DNA from: Bacteriovoracia bacterium
GTDB lineage: Bacteria > Bdellovibrionota > UBA1018 > JBFWNL01
Length of the DNA: 64,000 bases
Reading direction: 5' to 3'
Assembly (NCBI GenBank): GCA_050251055.1
Contig: JBFWNL010000002.1
Location: 96,001 to 160,000 of the forward strand
Shown: piece after piece, positions 10,580-19,141 of the stretch
Layout: each line of letters begins with the position of its first letter
Numbering within the stretch: position 1 is the first letter of the stretch
The notes under the pieces: generated by a model
Seen by the model: the letters and a program-made list of their open reading frames with translations, nothing else
Told to the model about the DNA's origin: nothing
Database searches by the model: none
Position numbers and translations under genes: made by a program

Positions 10580-11505
10580 AAAAAACGGTCCGCCGTTATC
10601 GTGTCGCCCTTACCTATCCCCTCCCCCGAAGGGTGATCGACGATGTGGTTAAGCCGTGGGCGGACGTGACGCTCGTCCGTACCCGCGCGGAACTGATACG
10701 AGCGCTCCCTCGGATGGACGGCGTGCTCACATTGTTGACCGATCGCGTGGATGAACCTCTTCTCCAACGTGCGGCCCGCCTGCGGGCCGTGGGTAACGTC
10801 GCCGTCGGCTACGACAATATCGATCTCAACGCGTGCCAAAGGCGCGGGATAGCGGTGCTGAATACCCCGGATGTCCTTACCCGCGCCACCGCCGAACTCA
10901 CGCTTGCCCTGCTATTCGCGACGGCGCGGAGGATATCCGAAGGAAATGCCCTCTGCCGATCCGGCCGCTGGCGCGGCTGGGATCCCGGCCAGCTTATTGG
11001 CCAACAGCTACAAGGGCGCCGGGCGGTGATCTTGGGACGCGGACGCATCGGTCGTGAGACCGCCAAACTTCTCCGCGCGCTGGGCATTCGCGCGGAGTTC
11101 ATCACGCGCACCGATCGTCCCTCCGCGATCGCGAACAAGCTGAACCGCGCCCAGATCCTTTCCATCCACGCGCCGCTCACTCCCAAAACCCGCCATTGGC
11201 TCAACGCCTATCGACTTGGCCTACTTCCGCCGGACGCCATCGTGCTAAATACTTCGCGAGGGCCCCTCATTGACGAAGCCGCGCTCGCGGCGGCGCTCGC
11301 GCGAAAACAGATTTTCGCGGCGGGACTCGATGTCTATGAGCATGAGCCGAGAATCAATCCTCGGCTCCGAAAGCTACCGAATGTTGTGTTGCTACCGCAT
11401 ATAGGAAGCGCCACCGCGCAGACGCGCGAGGCGATGGCCAGGCTAGCCGCCCAAGGAGTAATCAACGTGCTGCGCGGAAAACGCGCGAAGAACCGAGTCG
11501 TTTAG
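10576..11505 (+). CDS. D-2-hydroxyacid dehydrogenase (glyoxylate reductase / D-glycerate dehydrogenase-like)
   Basis: AVGYDNID, NTPDVLT, GRGRIG, NTSRG, GLDVYEHEP and PHIGSAT motifs. ATGA overlap with the miaA stop. Confidence 0.93.
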   Translation: MKKTVRRYRVALTYPLPRRVIDDVVKPWADVTLVRTRAELIRALPRMDGVLTLLTDRVDEPLLQRAARLRAVGNVAVGYDNIDLNACQRRGIAVLNTPDVLTRATAELTLALLFATARRISEGNALCRSGRWRGWDPGQLIGQQLQGRRAVILGRGRIGRETAKLLRALGIRAEFITRTDRPSAIANKLNRAQILSIHAPLTPKTRHWLNAYRLGLLPPDAIVLNTSRGPLIDEAALAAALARKQIFAAGLDVYEHEPRINPRLRKLPNVVLLPHIGSATAQTREAMARLAAQGVINVLRGKRAKNRVV

Positions 11506-11723
11506 AGCTCGTCTTCTTCTAAGCATTCACACCCGACGGGAAGCCACGCCTCCATCTCACATCGGTCGTCTTCAAGCGTATAACGTGCCCAGGGCGTATG
11601 GAGAACATGCCGACACAGAAGCACGCATTCGCCTGGACTGCGCTCACAATAAAAGTGACCTGCCAGGGCCGGAAACGCGCTGAAACCCACGATCAGGGCC
11701 ACTAAACTAAGAAATTTCTTCAT
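11502..11723 (-). CDS. Small secreted cysteine-rich peptide
   Basis: MKKFLSLVALIVGFSAFPALA signal peptide, GGAGG RBS, and 6 Cys in about 52 mature residues. Confidence 0.7.
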   Translation of the reverse strand: MKKFLSLVALIVGFSAFPALAGHFYCERSPGECVLLCRHVLHTPWARYTLEDDRCEMEAWLPVGCECLEEDEL

Positions 11724-11773
11724 GCTATCCCTCCGCACTATTTACAAACCGGCTAACCCAACCAGTTCAATCA

Positions 11774-11917: not shown

Positions 11918-13027
11918 TTAAATAGCCATCTGGGCGGTCAAAATAATGAGGCGGCCAGGTTCCGCCAGGGCCGTCGTCGCCATCCGCGGCGTGCCGCTCG
12001 AGGTCGTCATATCGTAGAGGTGGGCGTACGCCAGCTGCAGCTTCACATTGTGTTTGCTCAAGAAGCAATTCACCCCGAACCATAGCGCGGTTCCGGAAAG
12101 CCCGCCGTCGGCGTTCGGCGTATAGCGCTCATAGCGAAACACCGGTTGCATGAGACCCGACACCGTGTATCCAGCCTCGCCGGCGTACCCGTAGGAAGAT
12201 ACCTTCACGTCATTGGTCGTGTCGTCAGCCGCGGAAAACTCGAAACGGATCATCTCGGCATCTCCATTCCAGCGAACGTTGGCCCCATACCGCGCGTCTT
12301 GGCCGAAACGAAAATCCTTCGCCGCCAGAAAACCGCCCACATTCAACTTATCTAAGAAGGTGACGTCGGCGCGAAAGCTCACATCCTTCGCCGTATTGGT
12401 GTCTTCGGTATTGGGACGGCCACCGTTGGAGAGCATCCAGCCAAACCGCCACGGCTTAGGCTTATAAAAAACCTGCAATCCCATTTGTCGTTGGTCTCCC
12501 AACGTGCGCGAAATCAGCGATCGTTCGGGCAGCGTCAGTTCGGAAGAGGAATCGAGGGATTCTTGCACCGTCAGGATCTTCATCTGGCCGATTACGAGCT
12601 CGACTTCGTCGGACAGAAGAAAGCCCAAGTTTAGATCCTGCAAGACTTTGTTGTCGTTCGTCGACGAAACGGGCCCCGACGACAAGGACTTCGCCGGGTC
12701 GATCATTACCGTCCACCGCGTGCTCTCGGTGATCGCACCGCTCAGTTTGAGTTCCGCGCGGCGTATCCGAAAGTTATTGCTAACGGCCGGTGTCGTGGAG
12801 TCACTATAAAACCAGCTCTGTAACAGTCCATTGAACTTCATCTTTCCCTTCCCCACCTCGACAAATGCGGGGGAAGCGGGAGCGGCCGCCGAAACGGATG
12901 TCGCCGTAGGCGAAGGGGTAGCCGCAGGAGCCGGTTCTGCCGCCCGGGCCGCCCCGGAGTAAACCAGCAAGGCCATACTCATTTTGATGAGGGTAAACGT
13001 CTTGAAGGAAGTGAGCGTCCGTTTCAT
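11918..13027 (-). CDS. Phosphate-selective porin OprO/OprP family
   Basis: Signal peptide, Pro/Ala linker, KFNGLLQ, FRIRRAELKLSG, GQMK...ERS, RQMG, amphipathic beta-strands. Confidence 0.8.
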   Translation of the reverse strand: MKRTLTSFKTFTLIKMSMALLVYSGAARAAEPAPAATPSPTATSVSAAAPASPAFVEVGKGKMKFNGLLQSWFYSDSTTPAVSNNFRIRRAELKLSGAITESTRWTVMIDPAKSLSSGPVSSTNDNKVLQDLNLGFLLSDEVELVIGQMKILTVQESLDSSSELTLPERSLISRTLGDQRQMGLQVFYKPKPWRFGWMLSNGGRPNTEDTNTAKDVSFRADVTFLDKLNVGGFLAAKDFRFGQDARYGANVRWNGDAEMIRFEFSAADDTTNDVKVSSYGYAGEAGYTVSGLMQPVFRYERYTPNADGGLSGTALWFGVNCFLSKHNVKLQLAYAHLYDMTTSSGTPRMATTALAEPGRLIILTAQMAI

Positions 13028-13039
13028 GCGTCAGGTCTC

Positions 13040-14296
13040 CTAGAGGTAATAGTGCAAAGTGAACCATAGGACGTTGGCGAAGTCAGCCGAAACGGCATGA
13101 CTTCTTTCGCGACGACCGATAGCCGAAAATTCCCAGTGGGGCCGCGGAAAGTATTGCAGACCCAACCCGTAGTTGTCGCGAGAATAGCTGCGGGGCGAGC
13201 CCGCCACCCTCGCGTACTCTTGGGTGACGAATGCTTGTACGCCGCGCGAAAACTCCCACCCGGTCTTCGTCATTTGCGTACCACCGCTGCCTAACGCATC
13301 CGCATACGTCGCATTCAACTCAAATAGCGTGTAAACCGTGCGGCTCCAGCTAAAAATCGCGTAAGGTCCGACGAGCCAGCGCCGCGTGTTGCTCGCGGCA
13401 TTAGTCGCCTTCCCAGTATAGATGTTCCCCCCAAGCTTGACTCGGTCACTCACCGCATGACCGGCTTGCAAGGAAAATCCTTGCTCCACGCCTAACTGCG
13501 GATTGTCCGGCCGCCCCATCACCACGGTCGCGTGCACTTGGGTGTCGGTCGTAAAATAAGTGAACTCAACGTTATAGGTTTCTTGTTCCTCAGCGAAGCC
13601 CATCAAACCACGCGTGAGCATCGTCGGTTCGTCGATCTGCAATCCGTAAGCATAATAGAATCGGCCGACCCGCAGCTGGTATCGATCGAGTTCTCCCTGG
13701 CCGCCCTCGGGCCCCATCTTCACCGAAAGCCAGTGACGACGGCTGATCAAATAGCTCAAAGGACTATCTGCGGCGGCGTTGCCGTTGGGCTCGGAGCGGC
13801 CCAAGGTGCCCACCAAGGTAAAGCGCTTCCCATCCGTAATGGCGGCCTCCAGATCCAATCGCATCACCAGGAAACGTCCCGTCACCGCGGAAGGCGTGTC
13901 TTCGATCAACTGCCGGAAGCGCAGATTTCCTCCCAGTTGCAGCCAAGCGGGGGTCGAAACTGCTCCGTAAAGAAAACTTTCCTCGCGGGACTCCTCCGAA
14001 GCGACAAGGGGGGCCGGAGAACCTCCCGTATCAAGGGTCTCGGGCCCTTTTTCGAAGAAGAAACGTCCGTGAGAGATGATCTCCTTAGAGAGCACACGGC
14101 CATGCTCGGACAAAAGGCCGCCTCCCGTGACGCTGACGTGGCAGCTCGAACAGTTTCCGTACCCGTACCGGGTCATTTCCGGATAGGCTCTCGCCTCGCG
14201 AGACACGCCTAAAAGGGCGAGCCCCACCGCGGCACCCACAAACCAGCGTAGGGAAAAGCGCGTCGATCCCACTATTTCATCCCTTGGAGAATCCAC
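13040..14296 (-). CDS. Outer-membrane beta-barrel with N-terminal c-type heme motif (cytochrome-porin fusion)
   Basis: Signal peptide ending ARA|YPEMTRYGYGNCSSCH...LSEHGR, then about 330 aa of beta-strands and a C-terminal FTLHYYL. The real start may be GTG 14272, overlapping the upstream stop. Confidence 0.8.
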   Translation of the reverse strand: MDSPRDEIVGSTRFSLRWFVGAAVGLALLGVSREARAYPEMTRYGYGNCSSCHVSVTGGGLLSEHGRVLSKEIISHGRFFFEKGPETLDTGGSPAPLVASEESREESFLYGAVSTPAWLQLGGNLRFRQLIEDTPSAVTGRFLVMRLDLEAAITDGKRFTLVGTLGRSEPNGNAAADSPLSYLISRRHWLSVKMGPEGGQGELDRYQLRVGRFYYAYGLQIDEPTMLTRGLMGFAEEQETYNVEFTYFTTDTQVHATVVMGRPDNPQLGVEQGFSLQAGHAVSDRVKLGGNIYTGKATNAASNTRRWLVGPYAIFSWSRTVYTLFELNATYADALGSGGTQMTKTGWEFSRGVQAFVTQEYARVAGSPRSYSRDNYGLGLQYFPRPHWEFSAIGRRERSHAVSADFANVLWFTLHYYL

Positions 14297-14913
14297 TCCG
14301 AGAGCGCACGGCGTTCGTCATCCAATAGCCGCGGCAGCGGTAACGCCGGCATGTCCGCGCGGACCACGGTACGGTCGAAAATCAGCGCGGCCTTCGCGCG
14401 AACTTCATCGACGTTACCGAGATCCAATTTCGCCTCTGGATTGGGTTGAGAATGACATTCAAGACAACGCCTTTCGATGATCTGGGTACGCACCAGCTCC
14501 CAGGTATAAGGCCCCGTCTTCAAGACCGGGTCAAGCGGCGTGGTCGTACCCGCCGAGGCCTCGCGGGGAGCGCCTTGGGCGATCCACGCCACCAGCACTT
14601 GGGCTTCCTCCGTCGAAAGCGGTCCCAGGGGTGAGGGCCCGGCAGGCGGCATCGTCCTTTGCTCCAATGCCCGGGTCTCGATGCGGCCCAGGTTTTTTAA
14701 CACGGAGGGGTAGGTTTCTAGGTTCAACGAGCCTTGATCGCCACCGGCTCCACTATGACAGCTCAGGCATTTCGGAACCAGGACTCGCTCCCACACCTGG
14801 TTAAATCCCACGGGCGTGGTCTGCGCCGCTCCTCCGGAAACCCTCGGTGTCTTGTCATAGTGAAATCCACATCCACAAAACAAAGCCACGGCTATCAAAA
14901 TAAAATTTTTCAT
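14272..14913 (-). CDS. Diheme c-type cytochrome lipoprotein (two tandem small cytochrome domains)
   Basis: Lipobox LFCGC; CLSCH...MPP and CLECH...MPA; each repeat ends L..EE/DE...L..WI.QG. Confidence 0.85.
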   Translation of the reverse strand: MKNFILIAVALFCGCGFHYDKTPRVSGGAAQTTPVGFNQVWERVLVPKCLSCHSGAGGDQGSLNLETYPSVLKNLGRIETRALEQRTMPPAGPSPLGPLSTEEAQVLVAWIAQGAPREASAGTTTPLDPVLKTGPYTWELVRTQIIERRCLECHSQPNPEAKLDLGNVDEVRAKAALIFDRTVVRADMPALPLPRLLDDERRALSEWILQGMK

Positions 14914-15491
14914 GGCTTTAACACCGTTTCCACTTCGACATCAACTTGCTTGGCCACCGTAATCCCGGCAAAGCTCGGCACGCCGATTTCGAAATCATCT
15001 AATTGAACCGAAAACCTCGCCTGCACTCGCCAGGAAGGCGCGGTAGCGCTCACCTTCAGTTTTCCACTCACCGGCTTAGTCACTCCATGCAGCTGCATGA
15101 ATCCCTTGAAATCGCCTTCGGTGCCTAGCTTCAGCTCGCTCTTCATGATCCAAACTTCCGCGGTGGGATACTTCGCTAAAAGCAGGTACTTCTCTTGTAA
15201 ATGCCGATTGCGTAACGCCAGCCCCGTATCGAGACTCGCCAGCATGAACTTAAAGCCGCCTTGCACGGTCAGCTGATCGCTCCCCTGAGGGCCAGACGGC
15301 TCAATGCCTAGCTGACCTTCGGGGCCCTTGCCGCGGCCAACGATCTTCATGGCGCTCGGATTACCAATCGCGAGAAATCGCACTTCTCCTTGTTCTGAAT
15401 TCGCTACGAATTGGGGGACGGCCGAGTAACCCGCCGGTCCGAAGCACGCAGCGAAGAGCGTCCCCACTAACCAAGAAAAACCAATTCTCAT
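14910..15491 (-). CDS. YceI family lipid/polyisoprenoid-binding protein
   Basis: LDTGLALRNRHL, KYPTA and LHGVTKPV motifs; signal peptide; 4-bp overlaps on both sides. Confidence 0.9.
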   Translation of the reverse strand: MRIGFSWLVGTLFAACFGPAGYSAVPQFVANSEQGEVRFLAIGNPSAMKIVGRGKGPEGQLGIEPSGPQGSDQLTVQGGFKFMLASLDTGLALRNRHLQEKYLLLAKYPTAEVWIMKSELKLGTEGDFKGFMQLHGVTKPVSGKLKVSATAPSWRVQARFSVQLDDFEIGVPSFAGITVAKQVDVEVETVLKP

Positions 15492-18193
15492 GCCGCACCT
15501 TCCTTCGGAGTCTCGGCGGAATTTTCCGGAGGCACCGACGGCTGGGGTTCGTTAGGAAAGATGCGCTCACATTCGTCGTTACCGGGCTGCCATCGCCCTT
15601 CGCCGGCCTCCCGCAGATACTGGAAGATCGCCCAGCCCGCATTGTAAGCTGCCCGGTCGGCCCACTCTTCCACGATTTCGGGATAAAGCGGCTGGAGCGT
15701 TTCGGGGTCGAACTTTAACTTCGGGTCATCCACGCTGCGGTTATCGATGAAGCAAACATCCCGGAAAATTTCGTGATCCGGAAAATTCGTCGACGAGGCT
15801 TTCTCCGGGGAAATCTGGCGCAGGCACTTCTCCCGAACCTGGTTCAACATCTGGGCACCATGCTTGCCGACGAAGTTCGAGGCTTCCGCCGGGAACTGCA
15901 CACGTGTCCCTTCCATCGCCATCCAAATGAGATAATTACCACCGAGGTTACGCACGGCACCGCCCGCACCCCGCGAGTCAAAAGTCTTGAGATTCCGACC
16001 TTGGTTGCCGAACAACCCATCGATGAAGTTAGCCACGCGTACGCTGCCCCCCGACCAGTTCAACAGCCCCCGCGCGAGCGCCGTGTTCCCGTCCGCCCCA
16101 CTCCCGTGGCACTTCACGCAAGTGGTGCGATAATACCAGGATCCGGGCGTGGTCGAATAAACCTCCCCAAAGGGACGCTTCGGTCGGCCCTGGGCATTGA
16201 TCATCCAGGGACGCTGCTGCTCCTTCGGCAGATCGACCGTAGGAAATCGGCAGTCTTTTTTCTTGTTCCAATAACCCACGGGATAGGTCTTGGTGACCGC
16301 CTTTTGCAGGGTAGGCGTGAATTCCAGCTTACGATACTTCGGGGTCATGCCTTCGTCGCGATCTTTCCAATCCGCGCGCCGGGGCACGTAACGATCGCTC
16401 TTGGGCCAAGTGAAATCCTGGTCTACCCAGTCGAAGTCATCGTTCGACTTACATTCCGGCGCGAACCCTTCGGCCGCCGCGATGCTGCCGTACGAAAGCA
16501 CCCATTGACCGATGATCTTGAGCACCTTGCAATCGGGCGAGCCCGGCGTGTGCATCGGCATGCGGCTGGTGAGCCCCTGCGCCGACGGTGGGTCCGAAAC
16601 CTTGAGGTAAACGTGGCTCTGCGTGAGGTCGCCTTCGTGGTGTACGAACCGGCGCGTGGGGATCTGGGTCGAGCGGGTGTGAGTATTGAACTCGTAAATT
16701 TCTCCCGCACGCAGATCCAACGTCACCCCGTTTTCCTTCGTGAACGCGAATCCATTGGGGTTGTGGCAGTGGGCGCAGTTTCCCGTCATATAGGCCTGCG
16801 CCTTCACTTCGTAGATATTACGCGGATTCTTGGTCCCGACCCACTCTAGGCGCGGAAGCTCTTCGGCTCGCTGGTATCCCGAGATCAATCCGTACGCAAC
16901 GAAGCGCTCCGCCTGGCTCAACTCGGATTTTCCAACCGGATCTTCGCGACCCGCCTCGCCTTTTTGCCGACGATTCAGCTGCAGGGGCGTGAAGCCCAAC
17001 ACGAAGTTCTGGGTTTCCGATCCCATGTGACACTCCACGCAGCGGTGGCGTCCGGGCAGGGCATACTTGCGTTGTTTTCCGGATTTTTCATCGACCGTGA
17101 GTTTAAAAATCGTGTCTTTGAAGGAGGTGCCGTCCCGATACGGAATTTCCACCAGGGTCGCGAACTGCTCTGATTCATCCCAGCGGTAGCTACCGAATAA
17201 GCTCTTGGACCAATCCTTGCGCGCAACGATGATTCGGGTCTCGACCCGACGGTAGCGTGGCTTGCCGTTTTTCATCTTCACCAGCTTGTAAAACGTCTTA
17301 TAGAAGCGGGTGAAGTCGGGAATATCGAACTGCTTTTTAAGGGGATCGTAAGTAATGGTTTGGCGGACGAGCTGGCCGTCTTCGATCTTCATCGGGACGT
17401 GAATCCAACGGCCCTTCTCCGCGTTGTCCGCCCAGAGCGGATACTCGACGTTATAAGCGAGCGTGCCTTTCTTCGCGAGTTCGTATGCATCCAGTGTGAA
17501 CATATCCGTGTCGGTCAAATTCGGTGGAAGCTTCTCGGCCTGCGCGAAGAATCGGTCTTTTCGATAGTCGAAACCTACGCTTTCAGGCGCAGGAATGCAG
17601 TCACCGAGCTCGCTCGTCTGCAGCAGCTGGCTGGGATCCGGTAGTGGGGGCGCCCCCGCGGAGCCGGGCATCGGAAACGAGCCGTCGGGCCTACCGGCGG
17701 CTACCCAGGCTTTTAGGTTTTCCGCAATCCGCAAAAAAGCTTCCGAGTTTCCGCCTCGCCGATCTTCCGGTGGCATCCGGTTGTCGGAGTTTTCATCCAC
17801 CATGGCGGCGATGATCTGCTCGACCGTTTCGGAAAGCCCTGGATAAAACTGGGTCGTGCCCCCCACCGTCAGCTCCTGGCCGACGTGGGAGTCGGTGTAG
17901 GTAAAACCGCCGGTTTTGCTGGGCACGCGGTGACAGCTCGCGCAGGCTGAATTGACCGCGTCGCGGACGTCATTAAATGACATCATTCCGCCTTGCTTCA
18001 AACCCAAGTAGGGTGTCTCGGGAATGCGCCCCGCGGTCTCCACGGGGGCGCAGAAACGTTGCTTCTCGGTCGCGCCAACGATCAGCTTGGGTTTATTCGT
18101 GCAACCCGTGGAAATGCCGAGGGCGGCGGCCAGCCCAAAGCTGACCACCGCCCCGCTATCCATAAATTTATGGAATAAGCCTCGGCGTTTCAT
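15488..18193 (-). CDS. Large tetraheme c-type cytochrome lipoprotein with an SO2930-like diheme core
   Basis: Start MKRRGLF at 18193; lipobox ISTGC; CASCH, CVECH, CAHCH and CVKCH; YNVEYPLWADNAEKGRW, VETRI, YRWD and NCAHCHNPNG motifs. Confidence 0.85.
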   Translation of the reverse strand: MKRRGLFHKFMDSGAVVSFGLAAALGISTGCTNKPKLIVGATEKQRFCAPVETAGRIPETPYLGLKQGGMMSFNDVRDAVNSACASCHRVPSKTGGFTYTDSHVGQELTVGGTTQFYPGLSETVEQIIAAMVDENSDNRMPPEDRRGGNSEAFLRIAENLKAWVAAGRPDGSFPMPGSAGAPPLPDPSQLLQTSELGDCIPAPESVGFDYRKDRFFAQAEKLPPNLTDTDMFTLDAYELAKKGTLAYNVEYPLWADNAEKGRWIHVPMKIEDGQLVRQTITYDPLKKQFDIPDFTRFYKTFYKLVKMKNGKPRYRRVETRIIVARKDWSKSLFGSYRWDESEQFATLVEIPYRDGTSFKDTIFKLTVDEKSGKQRKYALPGRHRCVECHMGSETQNFVLGFTPLQLNRRQKGEAGREDPVGKSELSQAERFVAYGLISGYQRAEELPRLEWVGTKNPRNIYEVKAQAYMTGNCAHCHNPNGFAFTKENGVTLDLRAGEIYEFNTHTRSTQIPTRRFVHHEGDLTQSHVYLKVSDPPSAQGLTSRMPMHTPGSPDCKVLKIIGQWVLSYGSIAAAEGFAPECKSNDDFDWVDQDFTWPKSDRYVPRRADWKDRDEGMTPKYRKLEFTPTLQKAVTKTYPVGYWNKKKDCRFPTVDLPKEQQRPWMINAQGRPKRPFGEVYSTTPGSWYYRTTCVKCHGSGADGNTALARGLLNWSGGSVRVANFIDGLFGNQGRNLKTFDSRGAGGAVRNLGGNYLIWMAMEGTRVQFPAEASNFVGKHGAQMLNQVREKCLRQISPEKASSTNFPDHEIFRDVCFIDNRSVDDPKLKFDPETLQPLYPEIVEEWADRAAYNAGWAIFQYLREAGEGRWQPGNDECERIFPNEPQPSVPPENSAETPKEGAA

Positions 18194-18203
18194 ATCGGCG
18201 ACC

Positions 18204-19049
18204 TTAGTCGATCGTGTAGAACTCGTGGTCTTGCACGATCGGATCCAAGAAGGAGCGATCCAGCAGGTTCTGCAGGAGCTTTTCTTCCACTTCCTTGGTC
18301 TTGGTCTTGGTCTTGTCGGTCTTCGCGTCGACCGCTTCGTAAACGTAGAGCTTACGAGCCATCGGGTAGCTAAAGTCACGAACCGTCTTCACGTTCGCTT
18401 CCACGGCCTTGGCTTCGGCGGTGGCGGCCAAAGGCACGGCGCGATTGCCATCACGCTTACCGGAAGCGCCCGAGTAACCGATCGCATCGGCGTCCTTCGA
18501 GGTTTTTTCGGCGATGTCGGCGGTCTCCGCGAGCACGGTGACGCAGTTGCCGAACTTCTTGATGGCGGTGAAGTGCTTAAATGCGTCGGTCGTGCCGGAC
18601 GCGTCGTTACGGCGGTAAACCGTGATCGTACCCGCCTTGCCGGAACCGGCGACCTGCTCCCACTTCGTGATCGTGCACTCGAAGATGGCCTTCACCGTCG
18701 GCAGATCCATGCGGGCGATCTTATTGCTGCCGTTGACGAAGATCGAAAGCGCATCCAGGGCTACGACGTGACCCACGAGCTTGATGCCTTTCTTCGCGGC
18801 CTGATCGGCCACTTCGGGCTTCGCTTCGCGCGACATCGGGGCGATACCTTGTTCTTCGTTAGCGAGGGCAAGCTCGCCCTTGCCGCTGCCGCCGCCCAGG
18901 TAAACAATTTCTTTTTCCATACCGGCCGCGTTGATGGCGTCGGTCATGACGCCGGCCAGGGTGTCCGAGCCTTGGAACGGCACGGGAGCCGCTTGCGCCG
19001 TACCCACGGCGACCACGAGGCTTGCCACTAAGAGATTCAGTTGGTTCAT
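18204..19049 (-). CDS. pstS: PstS-family phosphate-binding protein
   Basis: QGSDT, GGGSGKG, MSR, VALDAL, RRNDASGT, DAIGY and YPMARKLYVY motifs; signal peptide; GGAG RBS before ATG 19049. Confidence 0.9.
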   Translation of the reverse strand: MNQLNLLVASLVVAVGTAQAAPVPFQGSDTLAGVMTDAINAAGMEKEIVYLGGGSGKGELALANEEQGIAPMSREAKPEVADQAAKKGIKLVGHVVALDALSIFVNGSNKIARMDLPTVKAIFECTITKWEQVAGSGKAGTITVYRRNDASGTTDAFKHFTAIKKFGNCVTVLAETADIAEKTSKDADAIGYSGASGKRDGNRAVPLAATAEAKAVEANVKTVRDFSYPMARKLYVYEAVDAKTDKTKTKTKEVEEKLLQNLLDRSFLDPIVQDHEFYTID

Positions 19050-19141
19050 TTTTCTTCTCCTCAAATCAAGATTGGTTTCTCACTACCGCGCCTTTGTACG
19101 GCGGATTCCCGCGACGTTGTTTTAGGTTTCCGTTATGCGCT

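Follow-up and report, generated by a model that had tools for sequence, protein, structure and literature searches.

Fused cytochrome-porins serve as marker genes for microbial iron oxidation. The closest described systems are the Cyc2 proteins (Acidithiobacillus ferrooxidans Cyc2, Mariprofundus Cyc2 PV-1), which have a signal peptide, a single CxxCH and a 16-strand OprP/OprO-like barrel; their defining motif is [A]XPXFAR[Q/K][T/Y] upstream of CXXCH, and for their porin the structural homologues named are OprO and OprP (4RJW, 2O4V) (Keffer et al. 2021, PMC8406198; this and the other papers below are cited from excerpts of their text). Here, we report the gene, conservation, fold, synteny and a controlled complex model, all computed, for a haem porin encoded in a 64,000-nucleotide (nt) stretch of a Bacteriovoracia bacterium genome (GTDB lineage Bacteria; Bdellovibrionota; UBA1018; JBFWNL01; assembly GCA_050251055.1, contig JBFWNL010000002.1, positions 96,001 to 160,000 of the forward strand), referred to throughout as the window. 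Judged by its sequence, the haem porin is of Cyc2-like design and belongs to a separate, large and unnamed family that is common in Bdellovibrionota. We consider it reasonably likely that the haem porin is the outer-membrane part of a three-protein redox module, together with a periplasmic cytochrome c and a YceI protein.

The haem-porin open reading frame (ORF) occupies 13040..14296 of the window on the minus strand (stop codon 13040-13042) and encodes 418 amino acids (aa) from GTG 14296. An earlier note on this DNA had taken that whole interval as the gene; the ORF is present, but GTG 14272, residue 9 of the listed ORF, is the likelier start, because it overlaps by 1 base the TAG stop of the upstream dihaem cytochrome gene and has AAGGGA upstream. 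The ESM Atlas record of the protein likewise begins at residue 9. With initiation at GTG 14272, the precursor is 410 aa long, of which the first 29 form the signal peptide and the other 381 the mature protein, whose first residue, the Tyr after the read cleavage site, is residue 1 in the numbering used below. The translation runs ...SREARA, the cut, YPEMTRYGYGNCSSCH-VSVTGGGL-LSEHGR, and then ~340 residues to the end, LHYYL, which agrees exactly with the description in the note of a CxxCH segment directly after the signal cleavage site, followed by LSEHGR. The note had also described an aromatic C-terminus; aromatic residues are present at positions -2 and -3, but the chain ends in Leu; family proteins most often end in L (98/144), then F (23/144) and P (11/144). 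The protein has a single CxxCH, 12 residues past the read cleavage site, and the conserved [FY]-P is preceded in most of 141 relatives by A or S and in a few by G or C. Two features characterize the haem porin as a c-type cytochrome, with predicted haem attachment: the sequence CSSCH and, for maturation, a gene for cytochrome c assembly elsewhere in the genome (PF01578, E 7.1e-34, over the cut-off). Promoter and terminator scans scored at the level of shuffled sequence.

A word-seeded search yielded 14 relatives of the haem porin, and a phmmer search of 1.84 billion cluster representatives returned 960 matches at E<=1e-3, 471 at E<=1e-10 and 126 at E<=1e-30. We retrieved 162 family proteins, of which 144 are full length with an N-terminal CxxCH. 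No CxxCH is present in 13 of the 162, namely 11 fragments (224-333 aa), a full-length protein with CxxCR instead and one protein without the N-terminal module; a second CxxCH occurs in none. All 144 aligned proteins have C12, C15, H16, G21, G29 and G174, and ~30 further positions are at least 90% conserved; P2, R6, Y9, G21-23, Y28, G29 and R30 each reach at least 90%. Chance alone could by no means produce such a motif. The family motif is [FY]-P-E-[ML]-[VI]-R-H-G-Y-x-N-C-x-x-C-H-V-S-P-x-G-G-G-h-L-T-x-Y-G-R-x-L-S, and downstream of it lies a barrel signature comprising M108-Q109, H187, FPRPH and HYYL. A family hidden Markov model (HMM) scores the window protein at E 2.7e-114. Pfam and NCBIfam give no family name for the haem porin, and relatives, including eight family proteins looked up, are named 'hypothetical protein' or not at all in their sources.

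The family is concentrated in one phylum. Among sampled genomes of Bdellovibrionota, 184/301 (61%) have a match at E<=1e-10; the figures are 169/258 for high-quality genomes and 96/170 by genus, and many genomes have two or three copies. A one-genome-per-species scan gave 145 relatives, from which 80 loci were kept; the locus counts below refer to these 80. Their titles are nearly all Bdellovibrionota, Oligoflexia, Bdellovibrionales, Bacteriovoracaceae or similar, with one titled Acidobacteriota and a few with other labels, and Atlas clusters add Myxococcota and Acidobacteriota labels. We found no description of the family in a literature search whose scope ended before the supplementary phylogenies of Cyc2 papers, where it might stand among possible outliers; co-mentions of Bdellovibrionota and Cyc2, in the excerpts returned, were incidental only.

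AlphaFold2 modelling with 14 sequences gave a 16-strand barrel (mean predicted local distance difference test score, pLDDT, 68.9), for which the Foldseek matches were general porins of 16 strands (E 1e-11 to 1e-9). With 144 sequences (the mature protein and 143 relatives), the model reached a pLDDT of 93.3 and a predicted template-modelling score of 0.89, with 16 DSSP strands spanning residues 82-380 and with the N-terminal 40 residues at pLDDT 88-94. Both models and the Foldseek matches bear out the barrel that the note had placed downstream of the haem segment. The top structural match among 48,161 representative chains is OprP (2o4v_A; Z 24.4, root-mean-square deviation 2.9 Å, 287 residues aligned), and the next has Z 22.2. 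In sequence searches, the window protein has no Pfam match at E<=0.1 and does not reach the gathering cut-off of Porin_O_P (PF07396), four of 14 relatives have weak Porin_O_P matches (best E 0.0083), and the nearest Atlas cluster bearing any Pfam family is a Porin_O_P cluster. A profile search of Protein Data Bank sequences returned non-significant matches only, namely cytochrome c551 peroxidase (E 0.25) and cytochrome f (E 2.3). As regards architecture alone, a monohaem module fused to the N-terminus of a 16-strand OprP-type porin is very likely.

Over the 80 loci, only three genes recur: those for cytochrome c, YceI and the haem porin. Specifically, YceI adjoins the haem porin in 58/80 loci by tblastn and 52/80 by clustering (+-4 kb), and a ~200-aa cytochrome c is a neighbour in 43/80 and 54/80, respectively; all other neighbour clusters occur in at most nine loci each. 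YceI ORFs on the same strand number 54: most (47) have their end no more than 130 nt upstream of the haem porin, five follow it closely downstream, and in two cases a cytochrome c gene comes between, as in the window. The same genome carries a paralogue on contig 15 (44501-45634, plus strand; locus L201:7529-8638; family HMM E 4.7e-37), which is the more typical family copy and has YceI directly upstream, a weak cytochrome b562-like ORF before it and a 374-aa cytochrome c after it. The YceI and cytochrome c partners are new relative to the earlier note. Literature searches for YceI, cytochrome and Bdellovibrio, or for cytochrome-porin and Bdellovibrio, found no paper naming them together, and a listing on YceI, outer membrane and cytochrome c held nothing relevant.

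Because the gene pairing is so constant, we modelled the haem porin and YceI as a complex, with haem included. The model scores 0.61 (runs 0.58, 0.71 and 0.61), as compared to 0.00 for the best of three controls; a score of 0.61 is reached by 116/157 solved complexes and 2/215 mismatched pairs, a calibration that is rough only, since custom alignments and haem were included in our runs. The runs share at least 81% of contacts, and the partner has a pLDDT of at least 86. On the haem porin, the interface comprises residues 8-9 and 11-14 (around CxxCH), 26-32 (the L-T-x-Y-G-R stretch), 35-36, and the turns 162-168 and 211-213; on YceI, it comprises residues 42, 44-49, 51, 91-93, 174-178 and 180-181, beside the invariant or near-invariant F39, A41, P45, G52, G90, R94, H97 and P172 of the YceI alignment. 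In the usual porin topology, the interface turns, which connect strands 4-5 and 6-7, face the periplasm, and the model thus locates both YceI and the haem module where the barrel opens to the periplasm. The model supports binding of YceI to the haem porin.

From these results, we infer that haem is attached, that the protein lies in the outer membrane and that it transfers electrons, and likewise what its substrate and the role of YceI might be. In the mechanism that we propose, a small redox-active solute would reach the haem via the pore, the haem would sit at the periplasmic mouth of the barrel, and the periplasmic cytochrome encoded nearby would exchange electrons with it, in one direction or the other, and connect it to the respiratory chain. 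The solute might be a metal cation such as Fe2+ or Cu+, which is a guess, iron being suggested by the analogy to Cyc2 and copper by a minority of neighbours. YceI, a lipocalin-like lipid binder, would dock on the haem module. YceI is a lipocalin that holds polyisoprenoid lipids, and a variant of the mechanism, which we rate as rather unlikely, is that YceI presents an isoprenoid quinone or other lipid-soluble redox carrier to the haem, with an amine sixth ligand (see below) as a linked possibility; the haem in the outer membrane would in that case be linked to the quinone pool on the far side of the periplasm with no need of multihaem proteins in between, and the three proteins would make up a redox machine of a new type.

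For comparison with Cyc2, we scanned metagenome contigs with a degenerate DNA pattern (F-A-R-Q-T, gap, CxxCH) and obtained 120 loci, nearly all with a three-residue gap, which provided 56-57 full-length proteins with the published motif and length, a set biased toward one version of the motif. Its motif, [VLI]-P-S-F-A-R-Q-T-G-x-x-C-x-x-C-H-T-x-F-P-E-L-T-P-F-G-R-x-F-K, begins at the cleavage site, as does that of the haem-porin family, and both have P2, R6, C12, C15 and H16, hydrophobic residues at positions 4 and 5 (a small one at 5), a Pro close by and L-T-x-[YF]-G-R, with equal P2...R6...C12 spacing. Cyc2 is also of comparable length and has a cytochrome c gene nearby, and the signal peptide with a single N-terminal CXXCH, the length of at least 365 aa and the 16-strand OprO/OprP-like barrel by which Cyc2 is recognized are all features of the window protein (381 aa mature, 16 strands). 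Profile-profile alignment with hhalign of the family against the Cyc2-motif set gave Prob 94.9 and E 4.6e-8 over 49 columns with signal peptides included, and Prob 87.2 and P 3.9e-6 over 20 columns for mature proteins; a further run gave Prob 84.4 and E 7e-6 over 21 columns. The similarity lies over the haem module. As a control for specificity, a family N-terminal HMM was run over 31,503 genome ORFs (83 with CxxCH) and 56 Cyc2-motif proteins: it ranks the target first, the paralogue second, and then four Cyc2-motif proteins (best E 0.011), below which, at E 0.2-4, Cyc2-motif proteins are interleaved with unrelated genome ORFs. The haem module of the family is probably, but not certainly, homologous to that of Cyc2, at a distance.

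There are also differences. PE[ML][VI]RHGY takes the place of PSFARQTG of Cyc2, a G-G-G insert follows CxxCH in the haem-porin family but not in the Cyc2 set, and the spacer from CxxCH to L-T-x-[YF]-G-R is eight residues in 118/141 family proteins, as compared to five (38/56), six (4/56) or seven (12/56) in Cyc2-motif proteins. At the PxFAR positions, the family has M (59%) or L (22%) at 4, V (47%) or I (37%) at 5, H (80%) at 7 and G (87%) at 8, so that just P2 and R6 are kept. The PXL motif of Cyc2, four residues past CXXCH, is absent from the family, in which the third residue after the CxxCH His is P (86%), followed by x-G-G-G-h-L; the window copy has V there. The barrels of the two sets are not alignable by sequence, and the host phylum of Cyc2 differs from that of the haem-porin family. 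Searches of the 57 Cyc2-motif proteins against Pfam and NCBIfam matched nothing consistent; neither library has a Cyc2 model, and their silence is therefore uninformative on Cyc2 membership. Because the Cyc2 motifs are absent, HMMs of the Cyc2 set miss the target and the barrels cannot be aligned, we treat the haem porin, on sequence grounds, as Cyc2-like in design but do not file it as Cyc2. The earlier note had pictured just such a divergent family, with a Cyc2-like N-terminal segment on the same architecture, in a lineage not known for iron oxidation, and the findings agree with it on each count: profile similarity over the haem module; signal peptide, single N-terminal CxxCH and 16-strand OprP-like porin; no PxFAR[Q/K][T/Y] and no hit by the proxy Cyc2 HMM; and related loci almost all titled Bdellovibrionota or its orders and families. 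As to function, the note had proposed an electron conduit or a redox-gated plug; both ideas are weighed here as proposals.

The haem ligands offer a further comparison. For Ghiorsea Cyc2, a low-spin haem with two axial ligands is described (2026 work, excerpt), while Cyc2 has no solved structure and AlphaFold 3 models give the CxxCH histidine as sole ligand, according to the excerpt of a 2026 review (PMC13741234). Candidates for the second ligand in the haem-porin family are M108 (141/144), H187 (141/144), H350 (135/144), H378 (130/144) and the N-terminal amine. In the 57 Cyc2-motif proteins, no His or Met besides the CxxCH His is invariant; near-invariant M108 and H187 are a feature of the haem-porin family that the Cyc2-motif set is without. 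In cytochrome f, the sixth haem ligand is the α-amino group of Tyr1. The mature start of cytochrome f is likewise aromatic-P-x-hydrophobic-[AV]-[RQ] at the cleavage site, followed by CxxCH, but after a gap of 20 residues instead of 11, and the remainder of the protein is unrelated. Because both the haem-porin and the Cyc2 motif start at the signal-peptidase site, and the Cyc2 set has no other invariant His or Met, the sixth ligand in both may, by analogy to cytochrome f, be the free N-terminal α-amino group. We offer this as a lead only, drawn from general background and the non-significant cytochrome f match (E 2.3); a literature search on Cyc2 and cytochrome f found no paper with 'N-terminal amino group'.

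The window copy itself departs from the family at four near-invariant sites: V19 (P in 125/144), H28 (Y in 140/144), R109 (Q in 139/144) and P187 (H in 141/144). No other sequence of the 144 rows combines these four residues, and none other has H28 together with a missing H187. On one reading, a histidine, which may be a haem ligand, has moved in the window copy from loop position 187 to haem-module position 28. The contig 15 paralogue keeps M108, Q109 and H187 and is without H350 and H378.

Several points weigh against a three-protein redox module built around a separate, Cyc2-like haem porin. In particular, haem attachment, outer-membrane location, redox activity and substrate are all predicted, and the complex with YceI is a model, not a measurement. 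The context outside the three-gene core varies and holds no consistent clue to a substrate, and the window copy, having no H187 and departing from the family at three further near-invariant sites, may behave unlike a typical family member. On the side of Cyc2 likeness, the profile match spans 20-49 columns and in the best case is partly signal peptide, so that the likeness may be convergence on a short haem motif; HMMs from the 56 Cyc2-motif proteins miss the target among the genome ORFs at E<=10; barrel-only hhalign against the Cyc2 set gives P 0.035, with reversed controls at 0.2-0.33; and PxFAR[Q/K][T/Y] is replaced by PEMTRYG (after A-Y) in the window protein and by PE[ML][VI]RHG in the family.

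These last points bear on whether the likeness to Cyc2 is convergent, that is, whether an unrelated OprP-type porin independently gained an N-terminal haem peptide, a question of ancestry only, the answer to which is compatible with any function. Convergence would account for the unalignable barrels, the failure of the Cyc2 HMM, the small number of shared columns and the different spacer lengths after CxxCH (mostly eight, as compared to 5-7). It sits poorly with the identical spacing from the cleavage site through P2 and R6 to C12, then L-T-x-aromatic-G-R, on the same type of barrel, with the hhalign probabilities of 84-95%, and with the finding that Cyc2-motif proteins are the best non-family matches of the family N-terminal HMM. 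We therefore regard convergence as a serious but minority possibility, and continue to take common ancestry of the haem modules as probable.

With regard to function, the haem porin could instead be a true functional Cyc2, that is, an Fe(II) oxidase that passes electrons from Fe2+ in the pore to the neighbouring dihaem cytochrome, as Cyc2 does to Cyc1. The Cyc2 architecture, OprP-like barrel and Cyc2-like haem module fit this proposal, as does the cytochrome c gene in the module (54/80 loci), a pairing that resembles the cyc2-cyc1 gene order in Acidithiobacillus (excerpt of PMC10654088); in addition, an excerpted table of metagenome-assembled genomes with iron-oxidation marker genes includes one from Bdellovibrionota, the gene being unspecified there (PMC12501874). 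Counting against it are the absence of the defining Cyc2 motif, the failure of the proxy Cyc2 HMM to find the target, and a different set of partners, with YceI present in 0/120 Cyc2-motif loci (flanks up to 1.7 kb). Bdellovibrionota are, to our knowledge, not known for iron lithotrophy, and yet 61% of the sampled genomes of the phylum have the family. Iron-related neighbours, moreover, all come from one close clade of six loci (L008, L009, L014, L016, L017, L061), in which the module lies beside Peripla_BP_2 (siderophore/haem/B12-type) and BolA genes and, in 5/6, beside a DsbD_N-like gene. On balance, Fe(II) oxidation as the function is unlikely.

In the window, the haem-porin gene is part of a packed, partly overlapping minus-strand run of genes for a PstS-like protein, a large cytochrome, YceI, a dihaem cytochrome c, the haem porin and a Porin_O_P porin (Table 1). 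The large cytochrome scores 112 bits against TIGR03806 (SO2930 family; cut-off 313), and its translation probably begins at MKRRGLF (about 18193), with a lipoprotein-like ...STGC after it. By tblastn, the large cytochrome occurs in 2/80 loci, Porin_O_P in 2/80 and PstS-like in 1/80; the large cytochrome and Porin_O_P genes are common only to L002 and L003, the kept loci most similar to the window. The adjoining Porin_O_P gene was considered as a relative of the haem porin and rejected, since the family profile gives it Prob 4%, that is, no similarity. Separately, 180 nt downstream of the Porin_O_P gene lies a 78-aa ORF (11502-11738, minus strand) with a signal-peptide-like start and seven cysteines, which has no match in Pfam or NCBIfam. 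The linker of the window haem porin is longer than in most relatives. The genome also has a haem-copper oxidase (PF00115), subunit I of which (E 9.9e-151) is encoded at 168183-169508 of contig 2 (minus strand), ~8 kb beyond the window end and on the same contig as the operon.

Table 1. Parts of the haem porin and neighbouring genes, in window coordinates.
Feature	Coordinates	Strand	Basis and remarks
Signal peptide of haem porin, MGSTRFSLRWFVGAAVGLALLGVSREARA	14186..14272	-	Putative; cleavage between A and Y read by eye from sequence
Monohaem module, mature 1-40, YPEMTRYGYGNCSSCHVSVTGGGLLSEHGR...	14066..14185	-	CxxCH at 14138-14152; invariance, pLDDT, hhalign
Linker, mature 41-81	13943..14065	-	Lower model confidence, block means 60-83
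16-strand OprP-like β-barrel, mature 82-381, ending LHYYL	13043..13942	-	DSSP strands, structural matches
Dihaem c-type cytochrome, 213 aa, CLSCH and CLECH	14272..14913	-	Pfam Cytochrome_CBB3 / PSCyt1; stop overlaps haem-porin start
YceI-like lipocalin, 193 aa	14910..15491	-	Pfam YceI, E 4.9e-15
Large cytochrome, ~900 aa, four CxxCH (CASCH, CVECH, CAHCH, CVKCH)	15488..18379	-	Partial SO2930-family dihaem domain
PstS-family periplasmic binding protein, first gene of run	18204..19064	-	PBP_like_2; TIGR02136, below cut-off
Haem-less Porin_O_P porin, 12 nt downstream of haem-porin gene	11918..13027	-	PF07396, E 3.4e-17

Two further proposals arise from the neighbouring genes. The first, that the haem porin is mainly a solute porin whose haem module is a plug or redox sensor gating the pore and not an electron conduit, is suggested by a barrel most like substrate-specific OprP, by the PstS-like protein and second porin (Porin_O_P) that bracket the cytochrome genes in the window run, and by the predicted position of the haem module at the periplasmic mouth. 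The scarcity of those two neighbours over the 80 loci makes this improbable, and the conserved cytochrome c and YceI neighbours suit electron transfer better than gating. The second proposal is copper handling, in which the haem porin would serve copper homeostasis by oxidizing Cu(I) or reducing Cu(II) at the outer membrane. CsoR-family repressors with the pattern C...H-x3-C, which we take to be the Cu(I)-sensing type, adjoin the module in 5/80 loci (L001, L006, L018, L048, L057; co-directional and overlapping the porin stop in L001, divergent in L048). Locus L001 also has a multicopper oxidase, L004 a metal P-type ATPase that contains an HMA domain, and L075 cbb3 oxidase FixP/FixG genes; among the other variable neighbours is a cytochrome b562 (L051). 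Loci with copper-related genes are a small minority, however, copper genes are absent from the window operon, the CsoR fingerprint is a putative sign of Cu(I) sensing, and such neighbours may be coincidence in compact genomes; we give copper handling only a slim chance. The reading of the haem porin as the outer-membrane part of a redox module with cytochrome c and YceI thus remains the one that we favour.

That a family of Cyc2 design is found in a phylum of mostly predatory bacteria means that this architecture alone cannot be read as iron oxidation, and that the single-haem porin design is commoner than thought. For the biology of Bdellovibrio and its relatives, the family would represent an unstudied outer-membrane redox module in about six of every ten sampled genomes. 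Through its constant pairing with the haem porin, YceI, a very common family of unknown function, gains its first molecular role that can be tested, and comparison of the haem-porin family with Cyc2 may help to settle the second haem ligand in Cyc2.

Compared with other known systems, the haem porin shares some elements and combines them differently. OprP/OprO are the best match of its barrel, yet sequence identity is 15% (2o4v), and they have no haem module. The E. coli YceI gene adjoins the cytochrome b561 gene yceJ; the YceI partner of the haem porin, which has the Pfam YceI domain, is likewise a lipocalin encoded beside a cytochrome gene, but in the window that cytochrome is a predicted c-type haem porin of the outer membrane, with YceI docked directly on its haem module in the complex model. 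MtrCAB, MtoAB and PioAB also combine an outer-membrane barrel with c-type haem for surface redox chemistry (excerpt of Keffer et al. 2021, PMC8406198); there, however, a 26-strand barrel surrounds a separate decahaem protein, whereas the window protein has one haem segment fused to a 16-strand barrel, and the barrel of the Mtr complex matches the window model with just Z 10.8. Cyt572 of Leptospirillum, an outer-membrane monohaem cytochrome on a porin-like barrel, is of the same design, a likeness drawn by description only (excerpt of PMC13741234). The Cyc2-like design itself is therefore known; what is new here is a fused cytochrome-porin family with its own motif, its own host range and YceI as its partner.

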